From positions 36,744 to 100,743 of the forward strand of contig JAGWMQ010000001.1 of assembly GCA_028873125.1 (NCBI GenBank): a stretch of 64,000 nucleotides of DNA. The letters are read 5' to 3'. The notes below the pieces were generated by a model, which ran no database searches, was not told where the DNA came from, and was given only the letters and a program-made list of their open reading frames with translations. The DNA is from Verrucomicrobiota bacterium. GTDB lineage: Bacteria > Verrucomicrobiota > Verrucomicrobiia > Limisphaerales > UBA11358. Shown one piece after another: positions 3,728 to 54,241 of the stretch. Within the stretch, counting starts at the first letter, position 1; each line of letters begins with the position of its first letter. Position numbers and translations under genes: made by a program.

Positions 3728-4895
3728 ATGAACATCGGAAAAAATCAAACAAAACAAGCCAGACAGAACCGATTCCCCGACGAGGGTAAAAATAGGACGG
3801 CAAAGGCCGGGCCGCCGGAAAGCTCGATCAGCCGTCGTTCGTTTTTGCACCAGGGGATTGCTGCCGGCGCAGGCGCGGTTGCGCTGGGGCTGTTGCCCGA
3901 CAGCGCGGCAGCCGACAACGGACTTACGCGCGGAGACGCCGCTATCCTGCGATTCCTGTCGGCGATCGAAATCCTGGAGACCGATGCCTGGCAGCAATAC
4001 AACGAGCTGGGCGGCATCCAGGACAGCGAAGTTCCCGGCGGCAGTGGGAACGCGCCGTACACGGCTGCCCTGGCGGTGCTGGATTCCGATATGGCCCAGT
4101 ATATCCATGACAACACCGAAGATGAATATACCCACTTTGAGTTCCTCAATGCCTATCTGGTTGCGCACAGCGCGGCCCCGGCCAATCTGGGCCGCTTTCG
4201 CACCTTGCCGAGCAGTCTGGCGACCGGCGCGCAGCAAATCGGCCGGCTCACCAACCTCATGCGACTGACTGTGGACACCAGTTGGTGGACGCGCTACCGC
4301 AGCCGGACCCAAAACCCGGATTTCGGCGACACCTTTCCCCATGCCGTGCCCGGCTTGAGCCAGGGGCAATTCCCGGGCATCCCCAGATCCGATGCCGACC
4401 TCATGCCGGCCGATCACCTGCAGGCCATCGCCAATACGGCGGGCTTTCATTTTGCCATCATCGAGCAGGGCGGCACCAGTCTTTACCCGTCGCTCACAAC
4501 GGGTTACCCATCGGGAGGCGTTGCGCATTTTGTTGAGCATCGGCCCCACCGAGACGATGCACTTTCAGACCTGGCAGGACAAGGCAGGCAATGCCCCTCC
4601 GCTGACCGATCCGACAAACGGGTTGGTGTTTCCAGATCTGAATGCCGCCCCACTGGGAGGCGAGGACTTCTCGACCAATCTCATCATGCCTGAGCCCACT
4701 ATATTTCTGAACAGAAAATTCCCGGTCTGTTCGATCATCCGGCCGACAGAAACCCATGGGGCGGCAATGGGCGTGGTGAAGTTCCTCACGGACACAGGAC
4801 TGTTCCGCGGTCAATCCCCCGAGTTCTTTGCGGTCCTCATGGAATTGGCCGACGCGGCGGATGCGGCGCGAGGCGAGGGGAGGGAAATCCGTTGA
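3728..4895 (+). pseudogene. Tat-signal Ferritin_2-like (di-iron) protein gene interrupted by a +1 frameshift near 4493-4497
   Basis: Twin-arginine leader SRRSFLHQGIAAGAGA and ferritin-like motifs DAAILRFLSAIEILETDAWQQY and EDEYTHFEFLNAYL in frame 2. The homology (QRVTHREALRILLSIGPTETMHFQTWQ...) continues in frame 0 (ORF 4392..4895). Confidence 0.7.
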
Positions 4896-12547: not shown

Positions 12548-13477
12548 ATGCGATCGCCTCGAATGATCCCGGGCGTGCTGGCACTGGGCCTGTTGCTTTC
12601 GTGGCCGGCGAAATCGGGGAAAAATTTATTGCCGCCGCCGGGGGGCAACGCGCCGGTTCGTGTGTTCGCCGCCACGGGCGTGGTTGAATCGCTCCAGCTG
12701 GACGACAAGACCGCGGTCATCCGCAACGACGCCATCTCCAATTTCATGGCCGCCATGACCATGCCGTTCCAGGTCAAGGACGCCGGAGCCCTGGCCGGCC
12801 TGAAACGCGGCGACAAAATTTCGTTTCGACTTCACGTGACCCGGACGGAAAGCTGGATTGACCGGATCGTGAAAATCGGAGCGGCGGAGCCGGCGGCAAG
12901 TCCAAAGGCTGCGGAGGCCTCCCCGGCCGCGGCGCCACCCCCGCAGCGGGCCGATTCCATACTGGACTACGCCTTCACCAACGAGCTTGGGCGGCCGGTC
13001 CGTTTGAATGATTTCCACGGGCAGGCGCTGGCGGTCACCTTCTTCTACACGCGCTGCCCGCTGCCGGACTACTGTCCGCGGCTCTCGAAAAATTTTCAGG
13101 AGGCCTCGCAAAAACTCGAAGCGATGGCTCAAGCGCCCACCAACTGGCATTTTATTTCCGTTTCGTTCGACCCGGCATTTGACACTCCGTCCGTGCTGAA
13201 GGCCTACGGCCAGAGCTACGATTACGATCCGAAACACTGGAGTTTTCTGACCGGGCCGCCGGACAAAATCGCCGAACTGGCGCGCGCGGCGGGGGTGGCA
13301 TACGAAGCGGAGGGCGGCACGATCAAACATAATTTCCGCACGCTTATCGTTGACGCCACCGGCCATTTGCAGATGATTTTCCCGACCGGCGGCGACTTAT
13401 CGGGGGAAATCGTTTCGGAAATCCTCAAGGCCGCCGCGGTGACAAATCAGATGGTTTCGCAAAACCAAAACCGGTGA
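12548..13477 (+). CDS. CusF-like copper-binding domain fused to an SCO1/SenC thioredoxin-fold copper chaperone
   Basis: The N-terminal domain FMAAMTMPFQVKD...LKRGDKISFRL is CusF-like. The C-terminal domain FFYTRCPLPDYCPR...HNFRTLIVDATG is SCO1/SenC-like, but with CX5C instead of the usual CX3C. Confidence 0.8.
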   Translation: MRSPRMIPGVLALGLLLSWPAKSGKNLLPPPGGNAPVRVFAATGVVESLQLDDKTAVIRNDAISNFMAAMTMPFQVKDAGALAGLKRGDKISFRLHVTRTESWIDRIVKIGAAEPAASPKAAEASPAAAPPPQRADSILDYAFTNELGRPVRLNDFHGQALAVTFFYTRCPLPDYCPRLSKNFQEASQKLEAMAQAPTNWHFISVSFDPAFDTPSVLKAYGQSYDYDPKHWSFLTGPPDKIAELARAAGVAYEAEGGTIKHNFRTLIVDATGHLQMIFPTGGDLSGEIVSEILKAAAVTNQMVSQNQNR

Positions 13478-14256
13478 AACTGAAACGGACAGCCGCGGCG
13501 GCGCTGGCGTTTGCCCTTCCAGCCGGCGCCACGTTTATTTTCATTTCCTGTTCCACCACTTCGCACCCCATCGTCGCGCCGCTGGAAATACCCGGCGCGC
13601 ATGACGTCGGCAACCAGGTCTGCGCGCAGTGTCACGCGGACATTGTCCGCGAATTTCCCGCCAGCCCCCACGCGCACTTGGCGCTGGCCAACGCGGGCGC
13701 GCCCGGCGGCTCCGGCTGCGAATCCTGCCACGGTCCCGGCAGCAAACACGTCGAGTCCGGCGGCGCAGCCCGATTCATCATCAACCCCCGCCGCGACCCC
13801 GACGCCTGCTTCCGCTGCCACCTCCAGGTCCGCGCCGCATTTGAATTGCCCGACCATCACCCCGTCATCGAGGGCCGGATGAGTTGCATGCAATGCCACG
13901 ACCCGCACGGCGGCGACATCTACAAGACCTCCGGCGGCCTGGCGATGGCGCGGCGGAATGAGACCTGCGCCCAGTGCCACCGCGAACAGACGCGCCCGTT
14001 TGTCTTCGAGCATCCGGCCGTGCGCGAAGGCTGCACGACCTGCCACGACCCGCACGGCTCCGTCAACCGCATGTTGCTCACGCAGGCCGACGACAATTTG
14101 TGCCTCCGTTGCCACGCCCAGACGCAGGCGGCGCCCGGCCGGATTTACATCGGCAACGTGGACCACACGGCGCTCCTGCAAATCGGCACCTGCTGGTCCG
14201 CCGGCTGCCACACGGCCATTCACGGTTCGGACGTGGACCCGCGGCTGCGATACTGA
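13474..14256 (+). CDS. Lipoprotein multihaem c-type cytochrome (7 CXXCH + 1 CX4CH)
   Basis: Lipobox FISC. Haem motifs: CAQCH, CESCH, CFRCH, CMQCH, CAQCH, CTTCH, CLRCH and CWSAGCH. PFVFEHP and IHGS motifs are typical of paired-CXXCH MtrA/DmsE/NrfB-like proteins. The GTG start overlaps the SCO stop (GTGA). Confidence 0.9.
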   Translation: MKLKRTAAAALAFALPAGATFIFISCSTTSHPIVAPLEIPGAHDVGNQVCAQCHADIVREFPASPHAHLALANAGAPGGSGCESCHGPGSKHVESGGAARFIINPRRDPDACFRCHLQVRAAFELPDHHPVIEGRMSCMQCHDPHGGDIYKTSGGLAMARRNETCAQCHREQTRPFVFEHPAVREGCTTCHDPHGSVNRMLLTQADDNLCLRCHAQTQAAPGRIYIGNVDHTALLQIGTCWSAGCHTAIHGSDVDPRLRY

Positions 14257-16710
14257 ATGAATGAGAAGTTCCAAACTTCAAGTTCCGGGTTCCAAAAAGT
14301 GCCAAACTCCAAGCTCCAGTCCGGCTCCGGTTTGAAGTTTGGAACTTGGAACTTCTTTGGAATTTGGTGTTTGGAACTTGGAATTTTGTCTTCCGTTTCC
14401 GCCGCCGGGGTTGGTCCCACCAATCTCCCGCCGCCGGCGCCGGTCAAAATCAATTTCGATCGCGACGTGCGCCCGATTTTTGAAGGCAGTTGTTTCCGCT
14501 GCCACGGCCCGAGGGAACCGAAAAACGATTTCCGCCTCGATGTCCGCTCCCAGGCGGTGGAAGGCGGGGACGCCAACACGAACGACATCGTCCCGGGCCA
14601 CAGCGACCGGAGCGAACTCATCCGCTACGTGTCCGGGCTTGACAAACGGGTCCATATGCCGCCGCGCGACAGCGGATTGCCGGCGCTGACGCGTGAGCAG
14701 GTCGCCGTGCTGGAGGCGTGGATTGATCAAGGCGCGCCCTGGGGCACGAACGCCGGACCGCCGGCGCTCGTCTTCGCCCTCACACCGACGCTGCGCGGCT
14801 TCGACGCGCACGGCGACCGCGGAAAATTCCGCGAACTGGAAGGCGTTCCCGAAGGCTTTGGCGGCGGCGTGGAAAATTTTTTCAGCCGGCAACGGAACGC
14901 CGGCGCCGTCCTGACGGTGGAAGGCCGCGCCCTGCTCCCCGAACGCGACCTCAAGCTCGCGCTCAAGCTGGAAAAGGACGACATCGGTTTCGTGGACGGC
15001 GGTTTTGAAACGTGGCGGAAGTATTACGACGACACCGGCGGGTATTATCCGGGATTCACCCCGTCCACGTATTCCCCGGGTCGGGACCTCCACGTTGACA
15101 TGGGACGCGCCTGGATGGATTTCGGACTGACCCTGCCCCGCGCGCCGAAAGTGGTGCTCGGTTACGAATATCAATCGCGCCAAGGCAACGAATCCACGCT
15201 GGCGTGGGGAACGGTCCTCCAAACCAGCGGCGCCAAAAACATTTATCCCAATGTCCAAGGCGTGAGCGAACACACGCACCTTTTGAAACTTGAACTCACA
15301 GACGAATGGCTTGGCTGGAACATTGAGGACCGCGCGCGCGGGACATTTTACCGGCTCGGCGAATCGCGCAACGACACGCCCGCCATCCCGATCCTGTCCG
15401 GCGGCACGCAGCGCCTGGATCAAAAGGTGACCTACACGCGGGGCGCGAACACCTTCCGCGTCGAGAGGCAGGTCACGGACTGGTGGCGCGTCTCCGCCGG
15501 CAGCCTGTATTCTCGCTACGATGGCACGACGCTTTTCAATCTGACCGCCGCGGATGTCTCCTGCGCGCCGGTTCCGGGCGCCTATTGGCGGTCGGAAGGC
15601 GTCACTCTGGAACGCGATTCGCGCGTGGCCAGTCTCGCCAGCCTGTTCCTTCCGGTGAAGGGCTTTAGCCTCTCGGCCGCCGGCCAGGCCGAGTGGACGC
15701 ACGAGAAGGGGTTTGGCGACGTGGCGCTGGATTTTGGCGACCCCAATCCTGCGTTTCCCGGCACGGTGAGTGCGAACCAGAACCAGACCGAATTTTCGGA
15801 GAATCTCGACGCTCAATTCAACCGGCTGCCCCACACCGTGGTGTTCGCCGAGACGCGGCTGCAACAGGAGAGCATCGGACAATCCGACGAGGCGGACAAC
15901 GCCATCGCCTTCCTGGACGGCGCCGGGGCCATTGGCCAGCGCACCGACGCGCTCAATCATCTTTACGACACACGCGCCGGCTTCACCTCCTCGCCGTGGT
16001 CGTGGCTGGAATTTGGCGGCCACTACCGCCGCCGCGACAGCGACACCGGCTACGACCATTCCAGCGCGCAACCCGGCAATGGCTATCCGGGCTTCATCAA
16101 TCACCGCGACATCGCGATGGACGAGATCGCGGGGCGGCTGGCGCTGCGTCCGGCGTTCTGGTTGAGCGGGCGGCTGACCTACGCCTGGAACGTGTCGCGT
16201 TATTCCGCCGCAACCGCGGGAGCGACCAATTTTGACGGCAGCCTCGCCGCCCCCGGCGGCCCCCTTCTGGCCGGACGCACCGCATCGCACGTTGCCGGAC
16301 TGAATCTCATGATCACTCCCGCGCAAAGGTTTTACTTTTCCGGCGCGTTCACCTACAGCTTCTCCCGGACGACCACGGCGGACAACGGCGATGCCGCCGT
16401 CGTGCCCTATCGCGGCGACGTTTTTACCGTCAGCGCCGGCGCGGGTCTTGTGCTGGACGCCAGGACAGACTTGAACGCCACCTATGTATTTTCGCGGTCA
16501 GCCTACGGGCAAAACAATACGGCGGGGCTGCCCTTGGGCCTCGATTTCACGCGCCACGAACTGCTCGTGGGCGTCACGCGGCAACTGTCCAAATGCTGGT
16601 CCGGCGCGCTGCGTTACCGCTTTTCCCAATACGCCGAACCCAGTTCAGGCGGGGCGAACGACTTCACGGCCCACGGGATTTTCGCCACGCTCAATTATAA
16701 ATGGCCCTGA
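14257..16710 (+). CDS. PSCyt1-type monohaem cytochrome domain fused to a large putative outer-membrane beta-barrel
   Basis: DVRPIFEGSCFRCHGP...MPP...LEAWIDQGAPW matches the Planctomycete cytochrome C (PSCyt1) domain. The remaining ~650 aa show alternating hydrophobic strand patterns rich in Y/G/S/T, ending in GIFATLNYKWP (aromatic OMP-like terminus). The ATG abuts the stop of the multihaem gene. Confidence 0.7.
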   Translation: MNEKFQTSSSGFQKVPNSKLQSGSGLKFGTWNFFGIWCLELGILSSVSAAGVGPTNLPPPAPVKINFDRDVRPIFEGSCFRCHGPREPKNDFRLDVRSQAVEGGDANTNDIVPGHSDRSELIRYVSGLDKRVHMPPRDSGLPALTREQVAVLEAWIDQGAPWGTNAGPPALVFALTPTLRGFDAHGDRGKFRELEGVPEGFGGGVENFFSRQRNAGAVLTVEGRALLPERDLKLALKLEKDDIGFVDGGFETWRKYYDDTGGYYPGFTPSTYSPGRDLHVDMGRAWMDFGLTLPRAPKVVLGYEYQSRQGNESTLAWGTVLQTSGAKNIYPNVQGVSEHTHLLKLELTDEWLGWNIEDRARGTFYRLGESRNDTPAIPILSGGTQRLDQKVTYTRGANTFRVERQVTDWWRVSAGSLYSRYDGTTLFNLTAADVSCAPVPGAYWRSEGVTLERDSRVASLASLFLPVKGFSLSAAGQAEWTHEKGFGDVALDFGDPNPAFPGTVSANQNQTEFSENLDAQFNRLPHTVVFAETRLQQESIGQSDEADNAIAFLDGAGAIGQRTDALNHLYDTRAGFTSSPWSWLEFGGHYRRRDSDTGYDHSSAQPGNGYPGFINHRDIAMDEIAGRLALRPAFWLSGRLTYAWNVSRYSAATAGATNFDGSLAAPGGPLLAGRTASHVAGLNLMITPAQRFYFSGAFTYSFSRTTTADNGDAAVVPYRGDVFTVSAGAGLVLDARTDLNATYVFSRSAYGQNNTAGLPLGLDFTRHELLVGVTRQLSKCWSGALRYRFSQYAEPSSGGANDFTAHGIFATLNYKWP
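14267..14386. repeat. Heptamer-periodic palindromic repeat (CCAA-type arm then TTGG-type arm)
   Basis: Left arm gttccaaacttcaagttccgggttccaaaaag...ctccaagctccag. Right arm tttgaagtttggaacttggaacttctttggaatttggtgtttggaacttggaatt. The arms are mutually complementary in several registers. Confidence 0.85.
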
Positions 16711-25057: not shown

Positions 25058-25314
25058 GGGCATGGCCGGCTTCACGGACGGGCTGCAGGGCAACTCACCA
25101 TCGCCTCCACCGCGCTTTCCACGCTGATGCCGGCCATCCAGCGGCAGTCCATCCGTCATCTTCGGCAATTTGATTGCGAGTCCGAACGATGACGTTCGCC
25201 GGGAAAACCATCGTCGTCGTCACGCTGCTGGCCAATCAGATTCGGCAGATCGTCTGCCGGGCCGATTCCTCGCAACCCGGGTCCTTCGTGAATTGGCGCT
25301 GGCTTCCCGCTGCA

Positions 25315-25348
25315 CTTTGGACTTTAGACTTTGGACTTTGGACTCTAG
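25315..25348. repeat. Heptamer repeat array (TTTGGAC-type), ending 11 nt before the murJ ATG
   Basis: ctttgga ctttaga ctttgga ctttgga ctctag, the reverse complement of the GTCCAAA units seen in uvrC. Confidence 0.8.
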
Positions 25349-25358
25349 CCTCCGCGCG

Positions 25359-26939
25359 ATGTCGCAAATGCTCAAATCCTCCGGCGCCATGGCCGGGGCC
25401 ACCCTGGCCAGCCGGATGTTTGGTCTGGTTCGCGAAATCGTCTATGCGCGTTTCATGGGGGTGGGCTGGGTCACGGACGCCTTCATGTTTGCCTTCACCA
25501 TCCCCAACCTTTTCCGAAGGTTGCTGGGCGAAGGCGCCCTCACGGCGGCGTTCATCCCCATCTTCAAGGAAAAGGAAAAAATACACGGCGAAGTCGCGAT
25601 GTGGCGCGCGGCCAACGCCGTGATTTCGGGCCTGGTCGTGGCCGCGGCGGTCATCATCGCGCTGGTCCTGGCGGGCATTTCCATCGCCCTGGCCGCGCAT
25701 CCCTTCGCCGCCAAGACGGAGCTCATGTTGCGGCTGCTGCGCGTGATGTTTCCCTACATGCTGCTGGTCTGTCTGGCGGCGGCGTTCATGGGCATGCTCA
25801 ATGCGCGCGGCCATTTCTTCATCCCGGCGATGGGCGCCACAACGCTCAACGTGGTGATGATCGCCTCCGTGCTCTGGCTGGCGCCGCGGTTGGGACTCCA
25901 ATTCCCCAGGGAGGAACGGTTGCCGCACCAGATCTTCGCGCTGGCCGTCGGCGTGCTGGCGGCGGGCGTGGCGCAGGCGGCCTTTCAACTGCCGTCCCTG
26001 TGGGGCGAAGGGTTCCGCTACCGCTGGGTTTCACCCTGGGGCGACGAGACGGTGCGGCGCGTGGTTACCAAGATGGTGCCCGGGGCGATCGGCGTGGCGG
26101 CCTTTCAAATCAACGTGCTGCTGGTCCAGTTCCTGGCCTTCTGGGTCGGAACCGGCATCCTGTCCTCGTTCACCTACGCCGTGCGGCTGATGGAATTTCC
26201 GCAGGGCATGTTCGGCATTTCGCTGGCGACGTATCTGCTGCCCACGCTCTCCGGGCTGGCGGCGGAAAAAAAGTATCCCGCATTCCGGGCCACCCTGCGG
26301 CACGGGCTGGGGACGCTGATTTTCCTGAACTGGATCGCCGCCGTGCTGCTGGTGGTGCTGGCCGTGCCGATTGTCCGCCTGCTGTTTGAACACGGCAAAT
26401 TCACCGCGTTGGCCACCGAGCAGGCCGCCTTCGCGCTGATGTGCCTGGCGCCGGGATTGGTGGCCTATTCGTCGGTCAACATCATGGCGCGCGCGTTCTA
26501 TGCCCTCGGCGACGTGCAAACGCCCATGAAAGTCAGCGTGGTCTGCCTGGTGCTTAATTTCCTGCTGGCCGCCCTGCTGATCGTGCCCCTCCAGCAAGGC
26601 GGCCTCGGTCTGGCAAACACGGCCACGTCCGCGGGCAATGTGGCCCTGCTGCTGTTCGCGCTGCGCAAAAAGCTGGCCCGGCTCGAAATGGAGCCGCTGC
26701 GCCGGACGCTCCTGCCGCTCGCGCTGGCCGGTGTTTCGGCCGGATGGGTGGCCTGGCTCGGCTGGCGGTATTGGGATCGGCACCTCGGCCACGGCACGCT
26801 CGCGCTGAAAATCGGCGCCGTGTTTGCGCCGGCGATCCTGGCCGGGGCCGTTTATGGAACCTTGGCGCTGGCGTTCAAAGTTCCGGCGGCCAGGGAGATG
26901 GCGGATCTGTTCCTGGCCAGGACCCGGCGGTCGGGTTGA
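25359..26939 (+). CDS. murJ: Lipid II flippase MurJ (MviN)
   Basis: SRMFGLVREIVYARFMG, DAFMFAFTIPNLFRRLLGEGALTAAFIP and a multi-TM body are MurJ hallmarks. The start is at ATG 25359. Confidence 0.9.
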   Translation: MSQMLKSSGAMAGATLASRMFGLVREIVYARFMGVGWVTDAFMFAFTIPNLFRRLLGEGALTAAFIPIFKEKEKIHGEVAMWRAANAVISGLVVAAAVIIALVLAGISIALAAHPFAAKTELMLRLLRVMFPYMLLVCLAAAFMGMLNARGHFFIPAMGATTLNVVMIASVLWLAPRLGLQFPREERLPHQIFALAVGVLAAGVAQAAFQLPSLWGEGFRYRWVSPWGDETVRRVVTKMVPGAIGVAAFQINVLLVQFLAFWVGTGILSSFTYAVRLMEFPQGMFGISLATYLLPTLSGLAAEKKYPAFRATLRHGLGTLIFLNWIAAVLLVVLAVPIVRLLFEHGKFTALATEQAAFALMCLAPGLVAYSSVNIMARAFYALGDVQTPMKVSVVCLVLNFLLAALLIVPLQQGGLGLANTATSAGNVALLLFALRKKLARLEMEPLRRTLLPLALAGVSAGWVAWLGWRYWDRHLGHGTLALKIGAVFAPAILAGAVYGTLALAFKVPAAREMADLFLARTRRSG

Positions 26940-27285: not shown

Positions 27286-28395
27286 TCAGCCCGATTGCGG
27301 CTCGACGACGATTTTCAACGAATCGTCCGCCGGCCGCGCCGCCAGCGCAATGGCCGCCGGCGCCTGTTCCAGCGGAAACCGGTGGGTGATCAAATGCCGC
27401 GCATTGAGTCGGCGGGAAAAAACCAGGCGTGCCGCCTCGGCCTGCAGGGTGAGGTCCGCCGAATAACTGCCCAGCAAATCCTTTTCCTCCATGCAGATGG
27501 CCGCCGGGTCAATGCCCAGGGTCCCGCCGTGCCGGGTGTGGGCGAACAACAAAACCTGTCCGCCGCCCCGCACGGCCCGGAGCGCCTGCCGCGTCGCTTC
27601 GTCGGAAGGAACAGCGATAATTGCCGCGTCCAACGTCCCTGGCCCAAAGCCCAATCTCCCCCCTGCGCCGCGTCGTTCCCCAAACTTGGGATTTGGCACT
27701 TCGAGCTTGGAACTTGGAACCAACTTCGTCCATTCCGCGCCCCATCGTCTGGCCAGCCGCAGACGCGACGCCAGCAAATCCGTCGCCAGGACCCGCGCGC
27801 CCCTTAATTTGAGCAGCCGCGTGAACATCAGACCAATCGGCCCCTGCCCCGCCACCAGCACGCGGTCGCCTCGCAAAAGGTTCAGGCGATGAATCGCCTT
27901 CAAGACGGTGTTGACCGGTTCGAGCAGCGCGCCCTCCTCAAAGGAATTCTTCGCCGGAATCTTCACCAGGCCCGGCAATGCGAAGTCCATCACCCGGACG
28001 TACTCGGCAAAGCCGCCGCCGGCCGGCTCGAATCCCGCCGTGATGCCCGTGCGCCGGTACTGCGGACACTGGGCGAAAGCGCGGTGCCGGCAAAAATGGC
28101 ACTGCAAACACGGCACGTGATGATGCAACGCCACCCGGTCGCCCGCTTTGAACCCCAACTTCGAACTTCCAACTCCCAGCTTCACAATTGTCCCGGCCGT
28201 TTCGTGCCCGAAAATGCGCGGTGGCGCCGGCGCGCCCGACTGGATTTTTTTGATGTCCGTCGGGCAGACACCGCACACGGCCACCCGGACCAGCAATTCG
28301 TTGGGGCCGATCCGCGGCACGGGCACCGACTCGACGCGCACGTCATTGACGCCGCGATACACCGCCGCCCGCATCGTTTTGGGAATGGCAAGCAC
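27286..28395 (-). CDS. Zinc-dependent medium-chain dehydrogenase/reductase, carrying repeat-derived in-frame segments
   Basis: VCGVCPTDIKK, GHETAGTIV, GDRVALHHHVPCLQCHFCR (structural Zn Cys cluster) and VAGQGPIGL (Rossmann fold). The segments LVPSSKLEVPNPKFGE and GVGSSKLG are encoded by heptamer-repeat DNA. Confidence 0.85.
   Translation of the reverse strand: MLAIPKTMRAAVYRGVNDVRVESVPVPRIGPNELLVRVAVCGVCPTDIKKIQSGAPAPPRIFGHETAGTIVKLGVGSSKLGFKAGDRVALHHHVPCLQCHFCRHRAFAQCPQYRRTGITAGFEPAGGGFAEYVRVMDFALPGLVKIPAKNSFEEGALLEPVNTVLKAIHRLNLLRGDRVLVAGQGPIGLMFTRLLKLRGARVLATDLLASRLRLARRWGAEWTKLVPSSKLEVPNPKFGERRGAGGRLGFGPGTLDAAIIAVPSDEATRQALRAVRGGGQVLLFAHTRHGGTLGIDPAAICMEEKDLLGSYSADLTLQAEAARLVFSRRLNARHLITHRFPLEQAPAAIALAARPADDSLKIVVEPQSG
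27682..27728. repeat. Heptamer repeat copy inside the dehydrogenase CDS
   Basis: aaacttgggatttggcacttcgagcttggaacttggaaccaacttcg, translated on the minus strand as VPSSKLEVPNPKF. Confidence 0.75.
28153..28183. repeat. Heptamer repeat copy inside the dehydrogenase CDS
   Basis: ccccaacttcgaacttccaactcccagcttc. It shares an identical 20-mer aacttccaactcccagcttc (28164-28183) with uvrC positions 45432-45451. Confidence 0.75.
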
Positions 28396-44244: not shown

Positions 44245-45924
44245 GTGACCGAGACCATCCGCAAGAAGCTGGGAACGCTCCCGCACAAGCCGGGCATCTA
44301 CCTGATGAAGGACCGGTTCGGCACGGTCATTTACGTCGGCAAGGCGCGCGACCTGCGCAAACGCGTCAGCCAGTATTTCCATCCGTCGCGGCGGATGGGC
44401 TGGGACCTGAAGTTCAACGCCCTGGTCGAGGCGATTTGCGATTTTGATTTCCACGTCGTCCGCAGCGAACCGGAGGCGTATCTGCTCGAAGGCAGGCTCA
44501 TCAAGGAGTTTCATCCGCGCTACAACGTGAGCTTTCGCGACGACAAGCGGTTTCTGCTGCTCAAGGTCAATTTGAACGACCCGATCCCGAACTTCACTCT
44601 GACGCGGCTCAAGAAGGACGACGGCGCGCGTTACTTCGGACCCTTCTCGAATTCCGGCGCGTTGCGCAACACGCTGGCGCTGGTGCGGCGGCAGTTCAAT
44701 CTCCGCGGCTGCCGCGCCTTCACGCCCGGCGGGGGCGATTACAAGCACTGCCTCTACGCGCACCTCAAATACTGCACCGCGCCCTGCATCGGCAACGTGA
44801 CGCGCGAACAATACCTGGAGCAGGTCAAGGCCGCGTGCGATTTCATCGAAGGCCAATGCGCCGAGATGAAGGATCAACTGGAAACCGAGATGAAAAAGGC
44901 CGCCGCGGCGCAGGATTTCGAGAAGGCGGCCGCGCTGCGCGACCTGCTCCGCGACCTGAAGGAGACGACGCGCAAGGAGCAGAAATTCGAGCGCGTGCCC
45001 TACACCCTGCCGCTGGCGGTGGATCCGGGACGCGACCTGGCCGAACTGGCGGCGGCGCTGGGCCTGCCCGCGCCGCCGCGGCGCATCGAAGGCTTCGACA
45101 TCTCCAACATCAGCGGCACCTTCGCCGTCGCCTCGCTGGTCAGTTTCAAGACCGGCCGGCCCGACCGCGCCAACTACCGGCGGTTCAAGATCAAAACGGT
45201 CGAGGGCCAGGACGATTTTGCGAGCATGGCCGAGGTGGTGCGGCGGCGTTACACGCGGCTGCTGAACGAGTCCAAAGTCCAAAGTCCAAAGTCCGGAAGC
45301 GAACACGGCGAAGCCATTCCGGAGGAATTGCAGAAGCTCGTGGACGTGACCAGCAGGAAGGTGCGGCGCCAGAGTTGGAAACCCAAAGCGGCAACACCCG
45401 AAGCTCTAACGGGCGGAATTTCCCAACCTCCAACTTCCAACTCCCAGCTTCGAACTCCCGGCCCCCAACTGCCCGACTTGATTCTGATTGACGGCGGCAA
45501 GGGGCAATTGAGCGCCGCGTGCGAGGAACTCAAAAAGCTTGGCCTCGAAAGAATTCCCGTCATCGGGCTGGCCAAGGAATTCGAGGAGATTTACCGGCCC
45601 GGCGCAAGTCAGCCGCTCCGGTTGGGCTTGGACCATCCGGCGGTGAAATTGCTTCAGCGCATTCGCGACGAGTGCCATCGCGTGGCCAATTCCTACAACG
45701 CGCAACTGCGGCTCAAGCGCATTTCGGAAAGCGTGCTGGACGAATTTCCCGGCATCGGCGAAGCGCGCAAGCAGGCCCTGCTGAAGAAATTCGGCTCGGT
45801 GCGCCGCCTGCAATTGGCGACGGTGGAGCAGATCAGGGAAGTAGCCGGCTTTGGCGGCCAGACGGCGGCGGAATTGAAGAAGTTCCTGGAGGCGCGGTCG
45901 GTGATCACTCCAAACGCCGCCTGA
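44245..45924 (+). CDS. uvrC: Excinuclease ABC subunit C, with a ~50-60-aa repeat-bounded insertion
   Basis: GIY-YIG motifs (PGIYLMKD, VIYVGKARDLRKRV), UVR domain, RNase-H-like LPDLILIDGGKGQL and C-terminal HhH. The extra segment lies between RRYTRLLNE and LPDLILIDGG. Confidence 0.95.
   Translation: MTETIRKKLGTLPHKPGIYLMKDRFGTVIYVGKARDLRKRVSQYFHPSRRMGWDLKFNALVEAICDFDFHVVRSEPEAYLLEGRLIKEFHPRYNVSFRDDKRFLLLKVNLNDPIPNFTLTRLKKDDGARYFGPFSNSGALRNTLALVRRQFNLRGCRAFTPGGGDYKHCLYAHLKYCTAPCIGNVTREQYLEQVKAACDFIEGQCAEMKDQLETEMKKAAAAQDFEKAAALRDLLRDLKETTRKEQKFERVPYTLPLAVDPGRDLAELAAALGLPAPPRRIEGFDISNISGTFAVASLVSFKTGRPDRANYRRFKIKTVEGQDDFASMAEVVRRRYTRLLNESKVQSPKSGSEHGEAIPEELQKLVDVTSRKVRRQSWKPKAATPEALTGGISQPPTSNSQLRTPGPQLPDLILIDGGKGQLSAACEELKKLGLERIPVIGLAKEFEEIYRPGASQPLRLGLDHPAVKLLQRIRDECHRVANSYNAQLRLKRISESVLDEFPGIGEARKQALLKKFGSVRRLQLATVEQIREVAGFGGQTAAELKKFLEARSVITPNAA
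45270..45294. repeat. Heptamer repeat (GTCCAAA x3.5) inside uvrC
   Basis: gtccaaagtccaaagtccaaagtcc, translated as KVQSPKS. Confidence 0.85.
45421..45459. repeat. Heptamer repeat (TTCCAAC-type) inside uvrC
   Basis: tcccaacctccaacttccaactcccagcttcgaactccc, translated as QPPTSNSQLRTP. Confidence 0.85.
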
Positions 45925-46509: not shown

Positions 46510-47040
46510 TCAACCCGGCGAAGCCGTTTCGATTTCTTCAGCCGGTCGTTTAGGCCGAATCAGATTTCTGAAAAAGAAAATCCAATAAATCGGCGCGAAA
46601 AAAGTGTAGGCGCTCAAGGAGATCAACAAATACCCGGCAATGACGAGCGGACTTGCGCGTAGCTTGCCTTCCACGCCGTTTCTCAGGACTTCACCTTCAG
46701 AAAAGAGGCAGACGAAGGGCATCAAATTGTTATAGGATCCAACAGCGCTGCCGCAATGTTCGCAAAACCACCCATCGGTCGTTCGCGGGTCAAAACAGTG
46801 GTGGCAGACCTCGACGGCGTCCGGCTCATGCAGTTTTCTTTCAAGGTTGGCGTCCCACGGATCAGGCGTCCATGGCGCTTGCCGAACCCACATGAGGAGA
46901 CGCCAAAGCGCGCCGAGCGCCAGGCCGACCAAGCCCAGTTGACCCACGAGGAGGTTCGGGTCGCTCACGTCCGCCATAGGAAGCTGTTTCAACTTCCCAT
47001 TGGGGATTCTCAATGTCAAGAGCGCGACGAAGACGTTCAC
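46510..47040 (-). CDS. Membrane protein with a central zinc-ribbon, translationally coupled to uvrB
   Basis: TM ([23 protein letters not shown]), CHHCF...FCEHCG, then TM ([26 protein letters not shown]). GTG 47040 overlaps the uvrB TGA. An alternative ATG is at 46977. Confidence 0.5.
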
Positions 47041-49157
47041 TTTCGCATTTGTTTCAATTTCCTGTAATGGACACGTTTCGATTGAAATCTTTCGCCACCG
47101 ACCATTCCTTTGAGTTCCTTGATCTGGTCGCGCAGCAGGGCGGCCTTTTCAAACTGCAATTCCCCGGCGGCGGCGAGCATTTCCTTTTCCAGTTCGCCGA
47201 TGGTTTCGGTCAGGTCCACATCCATCTTCGCGTCACGCAAAACTCCGTGGGCTTCCTCGCGTCGGGATTCATAGACGACGAGGCTTTCTTCGACGGCACG
47301 GCTGACGCTGCGCGGGGTGATGTGGTGCTCGGCGTTGTAGGCCAGTTGCTTCTCGCGGCGATACTTCGAGACGGCCAGGAATTTCTTGATGCTCTCGGTC
47401 ATCACGTCGGCATACAGAATTACTTCGCCGTGGAGATGGCGCGCGGCGCGGCCGGCGGTCTGGATCAAACTGGTTTCGCTGCGCAGAAACCCCTCCTTGT
47501 CCGCGTCCAAAATCGCCACCAGCGACACCTCGGGCAGGTCCAGCCCCTCGCGGAGCAGGTTGATGCCGACGAGCACGTCGAACTCGCCCTTGCGCAGCGC
47601 GCGCAACACCTCCACGCGCTCGATGGCGTCAATCTCGCTGTGCAGATACTGGACGCGGACGCCGATGTCGCGCAGGTAATCGGTGAGTTCCTCGGCGGTG
47701 CGCTTGGTCAGGGTGGTGACCAGGACGCGCTCCTTCTGGTCGGCGCGCTTGCGGCATTCCTCGATGAGGTCGTCAATCTGGCCCTGGAGCGGCTTGAGCG
47801 TGACTTGCGGATCCACCAGTCCGGTCGGGCGCACCACCAATTCGACCACGCCGGGCCTCCTTTGGTAGGGTGAACCGTCCTCCGCGCGCCGTTCGGATCG
47901 CGTGCTGGAGGCGGCGGGCAAGGGACTGCCCGCCCTGCCTAAACCGTTTTGCCGCGCCCATTCCAATTCCCGCGCGGCCGGGGTGGCGCTCACGTAAATG
48001 GTCTGGCCCTGCATGGCCTGAAATTCCGTGAACTTGAGCGGCCGATTGTCCAGCGCGCTGGGCAGGCGGAATCCGTATTCCACCAGGACGGTCTTGCGCG
48101 ACCGGTCGCCTTCATACATGGCGCCGATTTGCGGCACGGTGGCGTGCGATTCGTCAATCACCACCAGATAATCCTTCGGGAAAAAATCAATGACCGTGGC
48201 CGGCCGCGAGCCGGGCGGCCGGCCGGCAATGTGGCGCGAATAGTTCTCGATGCCGGAGCAGACGCCCATTTCCTCCATCATCTCCAGGTCGAATTCCGTC
48301 CGCTGTTTGATGCGCTGGGCTTCGAGCAGCTTGCCGTTTTTCTCGAACCAGGCGATGCGCTCGCCGAGTTCCTCGCGGATGGTCAGGATCGCCCGCTTCA
48401 TCTTTTCGCCGGTGGTCACGAATTGTTTGGCGGGAAAGACCGTGGCGGCGTCCAGGCCCTCGGTTTTGTTTCCCGTGAGGGGCTCGAAACGCGTGAGACG
48501 CTCGATTTCGTCGCCGAAAAATTCGACGCGCAGACCGTCCTCGCGTCCGGCGGGGCGGACCTCCACCGTGTCGCCGCGCACGCGGAAGTGACCGCGCTCG
48601 AAGGCGATGTCGTTGCGCTCGTATTGCAAGTCCACCAGGCGCGCCAGGAATTGCTCGCGGGACGGGCCGCCGCCGACGCGGATGGGAATGACCATGGCCT
48701 CGTAATCCTCCTTGCTGCCAATGCCGTAGATGCAGGAGACGCTGGCCACCACCACCACGTCGCGCCGCGAAAACAGCGAGCTCATCGTCGAGAGCCGCAG
48801 CCGCTCGATCTCCTCGTTGCGGCTGGAATCCTTCTCGATGAAGGTGTCGGTGCGCGGGATGTAGGCTTCGGGCTGGTAGTAGTCGAAGTAGCTGACGAAG
48901 TATTCGACGGCGTTGTTCGGGAAAAAGCCCTTGAACTCGGCGTAGAGCTGCGCGGCCAGGGTTTTGTTGTGGGAAATGACCAGGGTGGGTTTGTCCACCT
49001 TTTGGATGACGTTGGCGACGGTGAACGTCTTGCCGGAGCCGGTGACGCCGAGCAGCACCTGGTGTTGGGCGCCGGACACGATGCCTTCCGCCAGCTTCGC
49101 AATGGCTTGCGGCTGGTCGCCGGCGGGCTGGTAGGGCGCGACGAGGTCGAACATCAA
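47037..49157 (-). CDS. uvrB: Excinuclease ABC subunit B, with a ~32-aa GC-rich in-frame insertion
   Basis: [51 protein letters not shown] and the C-terminal UVR motif. Confidence 0.95.
47856..47950. repeat. GC-rich hairpin-containing element inserted in frame in uvrB
   Basis: Encodes [34 protein letters not shown] between the conserved ELE and [11 protein letters not shown]. Contains the perfect hairpin GGCGGGCA-agggac-TGCCCGCC at 47913-47934. Confidence 0.6.
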
Positions 49158-52710: not shown

Positions 52711-52721
52711 GGTCGAGGCAA

Positions 52722-52851
52722 CCTCCAAGTTCCAGGTTCCAAAGAAGCGCCAAGTTCCAAGTTCCAAGTTCCAAACCGCGCCGCGCGATGGCGGCTTTGG
52801 GAGTTTGGAATTTGAGACTTCCTTGGAACTTGGAATTTGGAGCTTGGAACC
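52722..52851. repeat. Heptamer-periodic palindromic repeat between the ABC permease gene and the downstream gene
   Basis: Left arm ctccaagttccaggttccaaagaagcgccaagttccaagttccaagttccaaa; ~20-nt GC-rich loop; right arm ctttgggagtttggaatttgagacttccttggaacttggaatttggagcttggaacc. Confidence 0.9.
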
Positions 52852-52852
52852 T

Positions 52853-54241
52853 TCATTGATTCGATGGCGCCGTGGCCAGTTCGCGCCGGCTGAACAGGAC
52901 GATGCCGATGAGCGCGATGATGCCGCCCAACAGCAGTACGATCTGCCCGAAGGCCGACACCAGGTCGCTCCACGGAATGCTTCGCCCGCCGCTCAACGAG
53001 TCAATCGGCGAGAAATTCTTCACCAGTCCGACGACGGCCAGGATGCCGCGGAAGGCCGGGAGCAGCACCGCGTCCGCGGCCGAATGCCCGCCTTCCGCGC
53101 CGGCGATGCCCACCGTGCCGTTGGACACCGCCTCGGCCAGTGTCCCGCTGGACGCCACCACCACCAGCAGCGCCAGCGAAAAGAACGCGGCGACCGGAAA
53201 GGACAGGAAGCTCGCCGCCATCAGACCGATGGCCGCCAGCAGTGCCATCCAGCAAAAAATGATGCCCAGCCCGCGCGCATAATTCAGCGCGAATCCGCCC
53301 TCGGGATAGAGCACCTCCATGCCGTCTTTGATTGGAAACAACAGCGTGGTGTCATTGGCATTCACAAACTGCACCGTCAGGACGCCGTCTTGGTCGAACA
53401 GGTCCGCCGGGATTTGAAATTCGTGGTAGGTGTCGGGCGCCAGGCTCATCGGCTCGCTGCGCCAGACGTTGGCCGTGCCCGGCACGCCCACCTGCCACAG
53501 GCCGACGAACGTGCCGGAGGGGCTTTTGCTGGCCGCGTTGAACTTCACGCGCAGTTGCAGCGGCTTGCCGCGCAGAAAATTCTTCTCCAGGCCCAGATCA
53601 ATCCGCCACCGGCGCTGGTAGGCCGGCGGCACGTCCTGAAGTTCGGCCTGGACTTCGTCGCGGATGGCCTTGAGCGCCGCCATTTTGTCCGCGTTCGACA
53701 GGTTGGCCAGTTTGGGATTTTGTTTCAGACGCGCCTGGAATATCTGCCGGGTCTGCGCCTCGATCTCGGCTTCCGGATTTTGCGGCTTGGCCGAGCCGCG
53801 CGCCACGAGCACCTGGGTGCGCAGAATTTCCCGCTCGGCCGCCGGCAGCGAGTGGGCGCGCCACTGCAGGAGGCCATAGACCCCGCCGCCGGACAAGGCC
53901 AGCAACGCGGCGTCCAGGGTCACGATGCCCAGCCATTTGCCCAGCCAGATCTGCCAGCGCGCCACGGGCTTGGTCACCACGACCTGTATCTGGCATTCCT
54001 CGACGTCGCGCGCCAGCGTGCCGCAGGAGAGCCACAGCGTGGACAGTCCCAGCAACGCGCTGATGACGCTCAGCGTGTAGGTGATCAAAATCTGCGTGAA
54101 CCCGCGCGCCGTGCCGTCGTCCTTGAGCAGCAACGGCAGGGCGACGACCGACGCCAGCAGCAACACGGCCACGACCAGGAACAGCCGGAATCGGAGCGCG
54201 GCCTTCCAGGTCAGTCCGGCGATGGCAAGAGTCCTTTGCAT
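52853..54241 (-). CDS. ABC-2-type permease-like membrane protein with a large extracytoplasmic domain
   Basis: ATG 54241 (MQRTLAIAGLTWKAALRFRLFLVV). N-terminal TM cluster, ~200-aa soluble insert, C-terminal TM cluster. Follows the ABC ATPase gene. Confidence 0.65.
   Translation of the reverse strand: MQRTLAIAGLTWKAALRFRLFLVVAVLLLASVVALPLLLKDDGTARGFTQILITYTLSVISALLGLSTLWLSCGTLARDVEECQIQVVVTKPVARWQIWLGKWLGIVTLDAALLALSGGGVYGLLQWRAHSLPAAEREILRTQVLVARGSAKPQNPEAEIEAQTRQIFQARLKQNPKLANLSNADKMAALKAIRDEVQAELQDVPPAYQRRWRIDLGLEKNFLRGKPLQLRVKFNAASKSPSGTFVGLWQVGVPGTANVWRSEPMSLAPDTYHEFQIPADLFDQDGVLTVQFVNANDTTLLFPIKDGMEVLYPEGGFALNYARGLGIIFCWMALLAAIGLMAASFLSFPVAAFFSLALLVVVASSGTLAEAVSNGTVGIAGAEGGHSAADAVLLPAFRGILAVVGLVKNFSPIDSLSGGRSIPWSDLVSAFGQIVLLLGGIIALIGIVLFSRRELATAPSNQ

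Follow-up and report, generated by a model that had tools for sequence, protein, structure and literature searches.

An in-frame linker with heptamer arrays in the UvrC endonuclease domain of a soil Verrucomicrobium

How does a long segment of extra sequence, bounded by short tandem repeats, come to be read in frame through the endonuclease domain of a DNA repair enzyme? The question is raised by the uvrC gene of a free-living soil Verrucomicrobium of the order Limisphaerales. The gene occupies positions 44245-45924 on the forward strand of a stretch of 64,000 nucleotides (nt), referred to here as the window, and encodes from a GTG start a protein of 559 amino acids (aa), whose residue numbering is used throughout. 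Related or metagenome DNA loci are given as L-numbers and protein homologues as P-numbers. From the analysis presented below, the extra segment is probably a composite, lineage-specific and disordered surface loop that has been colonised repeatedly by short repeats found across the genome, rather than the product of a single insertion.

The UvrC protein and its extra segment

The assignment of the gene draws on the list of open reading frames (ORFs), Pfam, sequence matches to the PDB and Foldseek. Pfam places all four domains of a UvrC protein in the expected order, namely GIY-YIG (residues 16-94), UVR (207-240), the RNase H-like endonuclease (270-481) and (HhH)2 (498-553), and both the PDB sequence matches and the Foldseek matches to 2nrt, 3c65 and 2nrr are in agreement. 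Three residues, D285 (..EGFDIS), D416 (..LIDGG) and H478 (DECHR), align with their counterparts in 2nrt and 3c65 and are invariant across 83 sequences. We take them to be the Asp/Asp/His of the UvrC 5'-nuclease site; the catalytic triad and its numbering, including the role of Asp416, reportedly go back to work by Karakas and colleagues in 2007. UvrC had been called an essential repair enzyme in an earlier note on this DNA, which is too strong since the protein is not strictly essential.

The extra segment falls between two anchors, both on the forward strand, that can be followed into solved UvrC structures. Upstream is the end of a helix, RRYTRLLNE (aa 334-342; 45244-45270), which aligns with ..RRRYTRVLKE of 3c65 and RRYSK of 2nrt and belongs to a helix predicted by AlphaFold2 at residues 324-345. 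Downstream, structure alignments identify the strand LPDLILIDGG (aa 409-418; 45469-45498), which is modelled as a strand at residues 412-416 with predicted local distance difference test (pLDDT) scores of 85-93. The Asp416 of this strand aligns with the Asp in ..VDGG of 2nrt. The 66 codons that lie in between (aa 343-408; 45271-45468, forward strand) translate to SKVQSPKSGSEHGEAIPEELQKLVDVTSRKVRRQSWKPKAATPEALTGGISQPPTSNSQLRTPGPQ, and the earlier note, which had described an in-frame segment of about this length, was exact in both its coordinates and its translation. In the structures 3c65 (B. stearothermophilus), 2nrt (T. maritima) and 8b0q (D. radiodurans), the linker is missing and the anchors are 0-4 residues apart; alignments to these structures skip in the query from residue 343 to residue 406 or 409. 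The loop of 5-15 residues that the earlier note gave for E. coli and Thermotoga was right in being short, if anything generous in its length. In Pfam, the UvrC_RNaseH domain covers 212 residues here on a profile of 159 positions. The 66 codons between the RRYTRLLNE helix and the LPDLILIDGG strand are a real in-frame insertion relative to the solved UvrC structures.

The AlphaFold2 model of UvrC, built on 83 sequences, is weak overall with a mean pLDDT of 58.8. Scores reach 85-93 in the endonuclease core and fall below 50 at residues 346-406, where the sole helix is at 360-376. In Foldseek, the model matched 3c65 with a TMt of 0.82, the alignment taking 215 columns for a target of 152 residues, and 2nrr with a TMt of 0.83. 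From these matches, the RNase H-like fold is intact, with the insert looped out. The linker is thus predicted, at low confidence, to loop out of a domain that is otherwise intact. It joins the strand LILIDGG at the end opposite Asp416, which would explain why the enzyme tolerates variation in the loop.

Each end of the linker carries an array of heptamers. The 5' array, (AGTCCAA)x3.7 (45269-45294, forward strand), is perfect according to Tandem Repeats Finder (TRF; 100% matches), begins 2 nt ahead of the linker within the codon for Glu342, and encodes (E)SKVQSPKS. The 3' array (45421-45470, forward strand) is a degenerate array of the CCAACTT/CCAGCTT type that encodes PPTSNSQLRTPGPQ; TRF reports it as (CCAACTT)x4.9 at 45423-45456 with 77% matches, and also with a period of 14 at 45430-45470. 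Both arrays show a TCCAA core on the forward strand, and the segment is indeed bounded by two arrays of the same orientation, as had been noticed earlier. The two differ in their repeat unit and have different histories.

Between the arrays is a core motif, GEAIPEELQKLVDVTSRKVRR (aa 355-375; 45307-45369, forward strand), with a predicted helix at residues 360-376. It is followed by a stretch, GAGTTGGAAACCCAAAG ('QSWKPK'; 45369-45388, forward strand), that comparison with L201 and L202, in which the aligned stretch is (GGAAGCT)n, marks as a possible decayed left arm of an inverted pair. As DNA, the flanks of the window's uvrC linker gave no hairpin above shuffled sequences (z 0.51 for 45360-45480 and z -0.69 for 45262-45400), and the idea that the 3' flank still forms an inverted-repeat hairpin was dropped. 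The 64-kb window holds no second copy of the internal 126 nt; only the arrays recur. An exact 20-mer, AACTTCCAACTCCCAGCTTC, is common to the 3' array and to 28164-28183, and an 18-mer of the 5' array, GTCCAAAGTCCAAAGTCC, has six matches in the window at three or fewer mismatches compared to 0.06 expected. Rfam (at gathering thresholds) and a tRNA scan gave no match in the window, and no GTAG/CTAC tag was noticed when positions 45271-45468 were read by eye.

The linker among relatives

Two sets of relatives were compared. The close set consists of the 120 best database homologues, which are 77-84% identical and come from metagenome-assembled genomes (MAGs) annotated as Verrucomicrobiae-type. 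The wider set comprises 80 loci obtained by scanning a single genome for each species; most bear the label Verrucomicrobiota, Verrucomicrobiia or Limisphaerales, and a few MAGs bear another. The linkers of the wider set were delimited by a MAFFT alignment of the full proteins. All 120 close homologues carry a linker at this site, 20-82 residues long and with an alignable core in most. Among the 80 loci, 71 have a linker of 8-119 residues between the anchors, while nine (63-68% identical) have no insert and keep just three native junction residues in the context R-E-S/A-K-P-M/L-P-D-L. The distance between anchors therefore spans 3 aa, the native junction, to 119 aa. According to the earlier note, a comparably long and alignable linker in close and distant UvrC proteins alike would speak against an insertion; such a linker is found throughout the close relatives but is absent from the nine distant ones and from the solved structures. 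All 80 loci read through the linker in frame, and the 13 that were rechecked by tblastn are single-frame. In L079, uvrC changes frame at 4251-4265, between query residues 416 and 444 and downstream of the linker, which may be an assembly error or a pseudogene.

The core motif, GEAIPxELQKLVDxTSRKVRR (consensus GGEAIPQELQKLVDETSRKVRRG), is present in most linkers, including that of Limisphaera sp. VF-2 (L062), and Pro359 within it is nearly invariant. Over its 21 codons, the window differs from L001, L011, L201 and L202 by 8-9 synonymous and 2-6 nonsynonymous changes, which fits purifying selection on the peptide. The comparison with L012 departs from this trend, with three synonymous and eight nonsynonymous differences. 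Linkers that lack the core are scattered over a neighbour-joining tree calculated without the linker columns, and this distribution indicates repeated loss or replacement of the core. Core and arrays also occur apart from one another: L004 and L014 have the core without arrays, L203/P0098 and L031 have arrays without the core, and in L020 and P0063 other repeats take the place of the whole linker content. From these sequence comparisons, the helix motif appears to be the first of three layers in the linker, gained early in the Limisphaerales, kept under purifying selection as a peptide and much older than the arrays. Several linkers of more distant Limisphaerales (L042, L043, L052, L054, L056-L059) share additional conserved motifs, ..DDVS.., TDAAA.. 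and APWVPKPPxKxxLPDL. Possibly, then, the insertion was at first a larger structured module, from which parts were lost in the subclade of the window.

The junction of the insert-free locus L065 reads GAGTCCAAGCCG (GAG-TCC-AAG-CCG; R-E-S-K-P). From its codons GAG-TCC-AAG, it follows that the 5' array sits on native Glu-Ser-Lys codons and may have grown from them. The second layer would then be a microsatellite, (AGTCCAA)n, that grew on, or was recombined onto, the native GAG-TCC-AAR codons. An array of 4.4 perfect units is found in the same place in L201 (P0002, 84% identical), and the tract is also perfect in L012 and L009. The nine codons of the 5' array are identical to those of L201, L012 and L203 at 27/27, 27/27 and 26/27 nt, respectively, whereas the codons of conserved residues outside the linker are identical in just 63-67% in the same three comparisons. 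With identity in the array so far above codon identity elsewhere, either the array has been homogenised or regenerated, or the DNA sequence itself is constrained. In L001 (~4020-4100), an AGTCCAA array is split by an element encoding VHPPPSDSGATRS with AGTCCA on either side, an arrangement that suggests a nested insertion. Several further homologues have this peptide as well.

The 3' flank of L201 and L202 consists of two inverted arms, (GGAAGCT)n and (CCCAGCT/CCAACTG)n, which are separated by a spacer and are largely complementary. Compared to these loci, the right arm in the window (the 3' array) is longer by exactly 21 nt, or three units and seven codons, as seen from an alignment gap of 21 columns. 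The 3' stretch may represent a third layer, derived from an inverted heptamer-array element in which the left arm decayed and the right arm expanded by three units.

Around the core, the linker is hypervariable in both length and sequence, even among proteins that are 80-85% identical. The flanks are rich in Lys, Arg, Ser and Pro, and their peptides resemble translated repeats such as SKVQSPKS, EDGGLKMEDG..PSSILHPPSS, ESGKVGKWESG..PLSHSPTFPP, GRARSPSEPRRAGDSAPYQ and VGQASSLSQ..DRRDACPT. At the DNA level, tandem arrays in the 80 loci reach 3.3/kb in the linker compared to 0.49/kb in the rest of the loci, and those with periods of 7, 14 or 21 account for 25 of 40 arrays inside the linker and 61 of 255 outside it. 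The units of the arrays vary from genome to genome, and relatives bear other heptamers, octamers or GTAG-type repetitive extragenic palindromic (REP) hairpins at the same site. True REP hairpins are found in the uvrC linkers of L011 (z -8.4, with a CTAC tag) and L020 (z -5.8).

It is unlikely that the whole linker, flanks included, is a selected functional appendage of UvrC in Limisphaerales, for which the repeats would serve as raw material to tune the length. Such an appendage might be, for example, a flexible basic tether whose helix docks onto UvrB, onto DNA or onto a different partner. A core that is conserved across the order and changes mainly synonymously would suit such an appendage, as would the extra conserved motifs of distant relatives (TDAAA.., APWVPKPP), the Lys/Arg/Ser/Pro-rich flanks and the identity of the array DNA in several lineages. 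However, selection on the whole is difficult to reconcile with flanks that are hypervariable at 80-85% protein identity, with a core that was lost or replaced at several positions in the tree, with the nine relatives that have no linker at all, and with the occurrence of the same repeat peptides in unrelated enzymes.

Heptamer arrays beyond uvrC

The arrays of the linker belong to a genome-wide family of heptamer repeats of ~4 units with a TCCAA core, and their number is well above chance. Period-7 arrays of CCAA/TTGG with at least three exact copies occur five times in the window and not once in 200 shuffles. Of the 256 tetramers, CCAA/TTGG has the top rank in this respect. As expected of dispersed simple sequence repeats (SSRs), eight arrays with a TCCAA/TTGGA core are present in the window compared to none in the shuffles. 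Arrays with this core are found at five places in the window besides uvrC.

A Zn-dependent alcohol dehydrogenase gene (27286-28395, reverse strand), the product of which is L-iditol 2-dehydrogenase-like, contains two arrays. The first, CCAACTT x4.1 (28155-28183, forward strand), is in frame on the antisense strand of the gene, and the second, AACTTGG x5.4 (27683-27720, forward strand), is in frame in a hypervariable loop. The 120 closest homologues of the dehydrogenase have two variable loops, of 26-37 and 40-87 residues, and these carry the repeat peptides of the UvrC linkers: QSPKSKVQS..TLDFGH (from an inverted AAAGTCC pair), VGQASRLS..DRRDACPT and SHPMGEGVRRTGEG. The neighbouring uvrB gene (47037-49157, reverse strand) has an in-frame insert of ~31 residues (47850-47948; query residues 403-435) relative to solved UvrB. 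The DNA of this insert includes an 8-bp stem, GGCGGGCA..TGCCCGCC, and has no second copy in the window, and its peptide resembles the REP-type ..RRAGDSAPYQ of UvrC linkers in relatives. From the dehydrogenase loops and the uvrB insert, it is clear that in-frame repeats are not peculiar to uvrC.

Outside of coding sequence, an array of the AGTCCAA family (25314-25344, reverse strand; ACTTTGG x4.4 on the forward strand) lies ~15 nt upstream of the probable ATG of murJ at 25360. The MurJ Pfam domain begins at residue 93 of the long ORF. Four genomes have a (GACTTTG)n array positioned 15-20 nt ahead of an ATG, namely those of the window (the murJ array), L005 (5136-5168), L020 (6795-6828) and L048 (5039-5071). 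Over the 80 loci, AAAGTCC is the commonest heptamer unit, present in 8/80, and three such arrays are just upstream of an ATG. A preference of the AGTCCAA family for positions in the 5' untranslated region or close to the promoter is suggested.

Inverted pairs that are capable of forming hairpins are present in intergenic DNA. The pair (CCAAGTT)n ... (CTTGGAA)n at 52715-52860, identified with TRF, folds as DNA into a long hairpin of -41.3 kcal/mol (z -7.0). It is probably intergenic, between two genes of unknown function, and has no match in Rfam. At 14285-14395, inverted arrays (TTCCAA.. / TTGGAA..; fold z -2.4) are found just past the stop of a multihaem cytochrome gene (13474-14256). They lie within the first 45 codons of a long ORF (14257-16710) with a PSCyt1 domain at residues 79-138; the gene itself probably starts downstream of the repeat.

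The exact 26-mer of the (AGTCCAA)x3.7 array was found in at least 120 metagenome contigs (L081-L200) with a GC content of 36-69%, and none of these copies is in uvrC. This range of GC content puts the 26-mer well beyond the Limisphaerales, and many of the copies are in long open frames. The orientation of the array is biased in such frames: in stop-free stretches of at least 300 aa (63 metagenome loci), 52 read SKVQSPK in the sense direction and 11 are antisense (LWTLDFG), while stretches under 150 aa have 11 in sense and 16 in antisense. The shared orientation of both uvrC arrays is explained by an orientation filter that favours SKVQSPK in sense.

Repeats were probably supplied to the uvrC loop by replication slippage and by recombination, unequal or ectopic, among the dispersed arrays, and the REP hairpins at the uvrC site of relatives by transposition. 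Selection would then purge just those changes that break the frame, introduce stops or cause the hydrophobic strand (LWTLDFG) to be the one translated, and the flanks would otherwise be neutral. Because the unit is 7 nt in length, steps of three units or compensated changes alone would survive.

The length of the unit may also be considered in terms of a contingency locus, an explanation that we regard as very improbable. The perfect heptamer tract of uvrC would slip by one unit in either direction, reversibly shifting the frame upstream of the 5'-nuclease site and the HhH region, and give rise to a repair-deficient mutator subpopulation. No better odds are given to the extension of such a frameshift switch to other genes via the same repeat family, with the identity of the tract DNA reflecting selection for slippage-proneness and not for the peptide. 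A perfect, non-triplet tract within the coding sequence of a repair gene, one that stays perfect in L201, L012 and L009, is in keeping with a switch, and it has been speculated that nucleotide excision repair (NER) genes decorated with repeats favour mutators (PMC3733652). However, the tract has only 3.7 units, the 3' array is degenerate (77% matches), and the same arrays are found in the dehydrogenase gene and in intergenic DNA. There was no frameshifted allele at the linker in the 80 loci, and all listed homologues are in frame. Logan contigs from two unrelated metagenomes, one of soil and one of mine drainage, are identical to the window across the insert, with no indel variant in the arrays. 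Were the switch real, a subpopulation of the contingency type, mutator or repair-off, would exist in free-living soil Verrucomicrobia.

The earlier note had seen the segment as a cassette bounded by repeats. As an insertion, this description stands relative to the solved structures and to some Limisphaerales; as a single cassette it does not, since its parts also occur separately, its interior is present in one copy in the window and its core is much older than the arrays. We give very little weight to a single mobile cassette with direct heptamer repeats at its ends, which was inserted as a unit and could be excised by recombination between those repeats. Arrays of the same orientation with a common TCCAA core do flank the segment, and some close relatives (P0098/L203) are without the middle part. 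In L203, however, what remains is the 5' array, 14 unrelated bases and (CAACCTT)x5, and an unrelated 14-nt spacer between two arrays is not a recombination scar. Moreover, the two arrays in the window differ in unit, the core has no second copy in the window and is independent of the arrays in relatives, and it would be much the older of the two. A mobile cassette or miniature inverted-repeat transposable element was largely rejected, as there was neither a further copy of the whole unit in the 64-kb window nor presence and absence of the whole unit with fixed boundaries in relatives.

An artefact of assembly or annotation, whether a chimeric contig or an unrecognised intein or intron, has almost nothing to recommend it beyond the breaks of Logan unitigs near the 5' array (~45258 and ~45295), since the sequence is identical in two independent metagenomes, homologous linkers are found in hundreds of independent assemblies, 66 aa is below the size of an intein and Rfam gave no match; on the grounds of size, of homology and of the independent assemblies, chimera, intein and intron were all rejected. 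The unitig ends (window 45229-45295, runs X2 and X3) are consistent with branching of the graph by the repeat or by strain variants.

Repeated colonisation of a disordered loop by dispersed repeats remains the preferred explanation, and several points weigh against it. Given that the core is conserved, the linker cannot be junk in its entirety. The strict identity of the 5' array DNA across lineages could mean a function at the level of DNA or RNA instead of neutrality. The label 'disordered' derives from composition and from low AlphaFold2 confidence in a model that is poor overall (mean pLDDT 58.8), and the putative left arm gains no support from folding in the window itself (z 0.51). Neither slippage nor copy-number polymorphism was seen directly in the assembled contigs, which give a single allele.

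Relation to known systems

Palindromic repeats that are carried in frame within genes are known from Rickettsia as Rickettsia palindromic elements (RPEs; Ogata et al. 2000, as cited in PMC10969869). Di Nocera et al. (2013, PMC3733652) described intragenic REPs of the GTAG/CGTC type, which were most abundant in Opitutus terrae, a verrucomicrobium, and frequently lay in NER genes, where the hosts include uvrA, uvrB and 'excinuclease ABC complex proteins', and the mutator speculation mentioned above was made for these REP-bearing genes. Heptamers have precedents in the dispersed GGGNATC repeats of ~4 units in Xanthomonas and Nostoc (PMC4692102) and in the short tandemly repeated repetitive (STRR) sequences of cyanobacteria, which are 7-bp repeats that form hairpins (PMC2670836). 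A literature search on heptanucleotide repeats in Verrucomicrobia found no paper. While in-frame REPs in the NER genes of Verrucomicrobia are already known (PMC3733652), three features are new: tandem heptamer arrays, not palindromes, that are read through in frame; a single UvrC junction that acts, throughout an order, as a hot spot for many families of repeats; and a conserved, lineage-specific helix in the middle of the linker.

With these features in mind, the UvrC nuclease junction provides a clean natural experiment on the tolerance of a fold, as it takes 0 to ~120 extra residues within one order, drawn from at least half a dozen repeat families. The concept of selfish DNA that lies within protein-coding genes is widened from palindromic REPs and RPEs to tandem heptamers, for which a 7-nt unit forces steps of 21 nt. 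In Limisphaerales, pipelines for annotation, orthology and structure prediction will meet repeat-derived peptides in core genes. The conserved helix of the linker provides a small, testable candidate for a lineage-specific interaction of UvrC.

Like the REPs and RPEs, the repeats of the window are short, genome-wide and in frame in conserved enzymes, where they lengthen loops or linkers by 20-80 residues. In both cases, NER genes are notable hosts, and L011 and L020, relatives of the window, carry REP hairpins at the very uvrC site. In contrast, the uvrC flanks of the window are tandem heptamer arrays and not palindromes, with no fold (z 0.5 and -0.7) and no GTAG/CTAC tag in the segment as read, and what occupies the middle of the linker is not a repeat but a peptide motif that is conserved. 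Like the family described here, the STRR and GGGNATC repeats have a unit of 7 bp, come in arrays of about four, occur at many loci in a genome and form hairpins when paired. Their positions just before starts or after stops are also matched by the arrays at 25314-25344, 14285-14395 and 52715-52860. They belong to another phylum, and the TCCAA-core units differ from them in not being G-rich and hence in having no potential to form a G-quadruplex.

Phase-variable contingency loci, which depend on slipped-strand mispairing of intragenic SSRs, resemble uvrC in the perfect non-triplet tract within coding sequence. Unlike such loci, uvrC has few units and no frameshifted alleles that were found, and is a housekeeping gene of a free-living soil bacterium. 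A final comparison may be made to conserved signature indels. While the uvrC site is hypervariable and not of fixed length, with a motif that has been lost repeatedly, the core helix resembles these indels in that it is an insertion restricted to one clade, present in most Limisphaerales, and has a fixed site in an enzyme that is universal.

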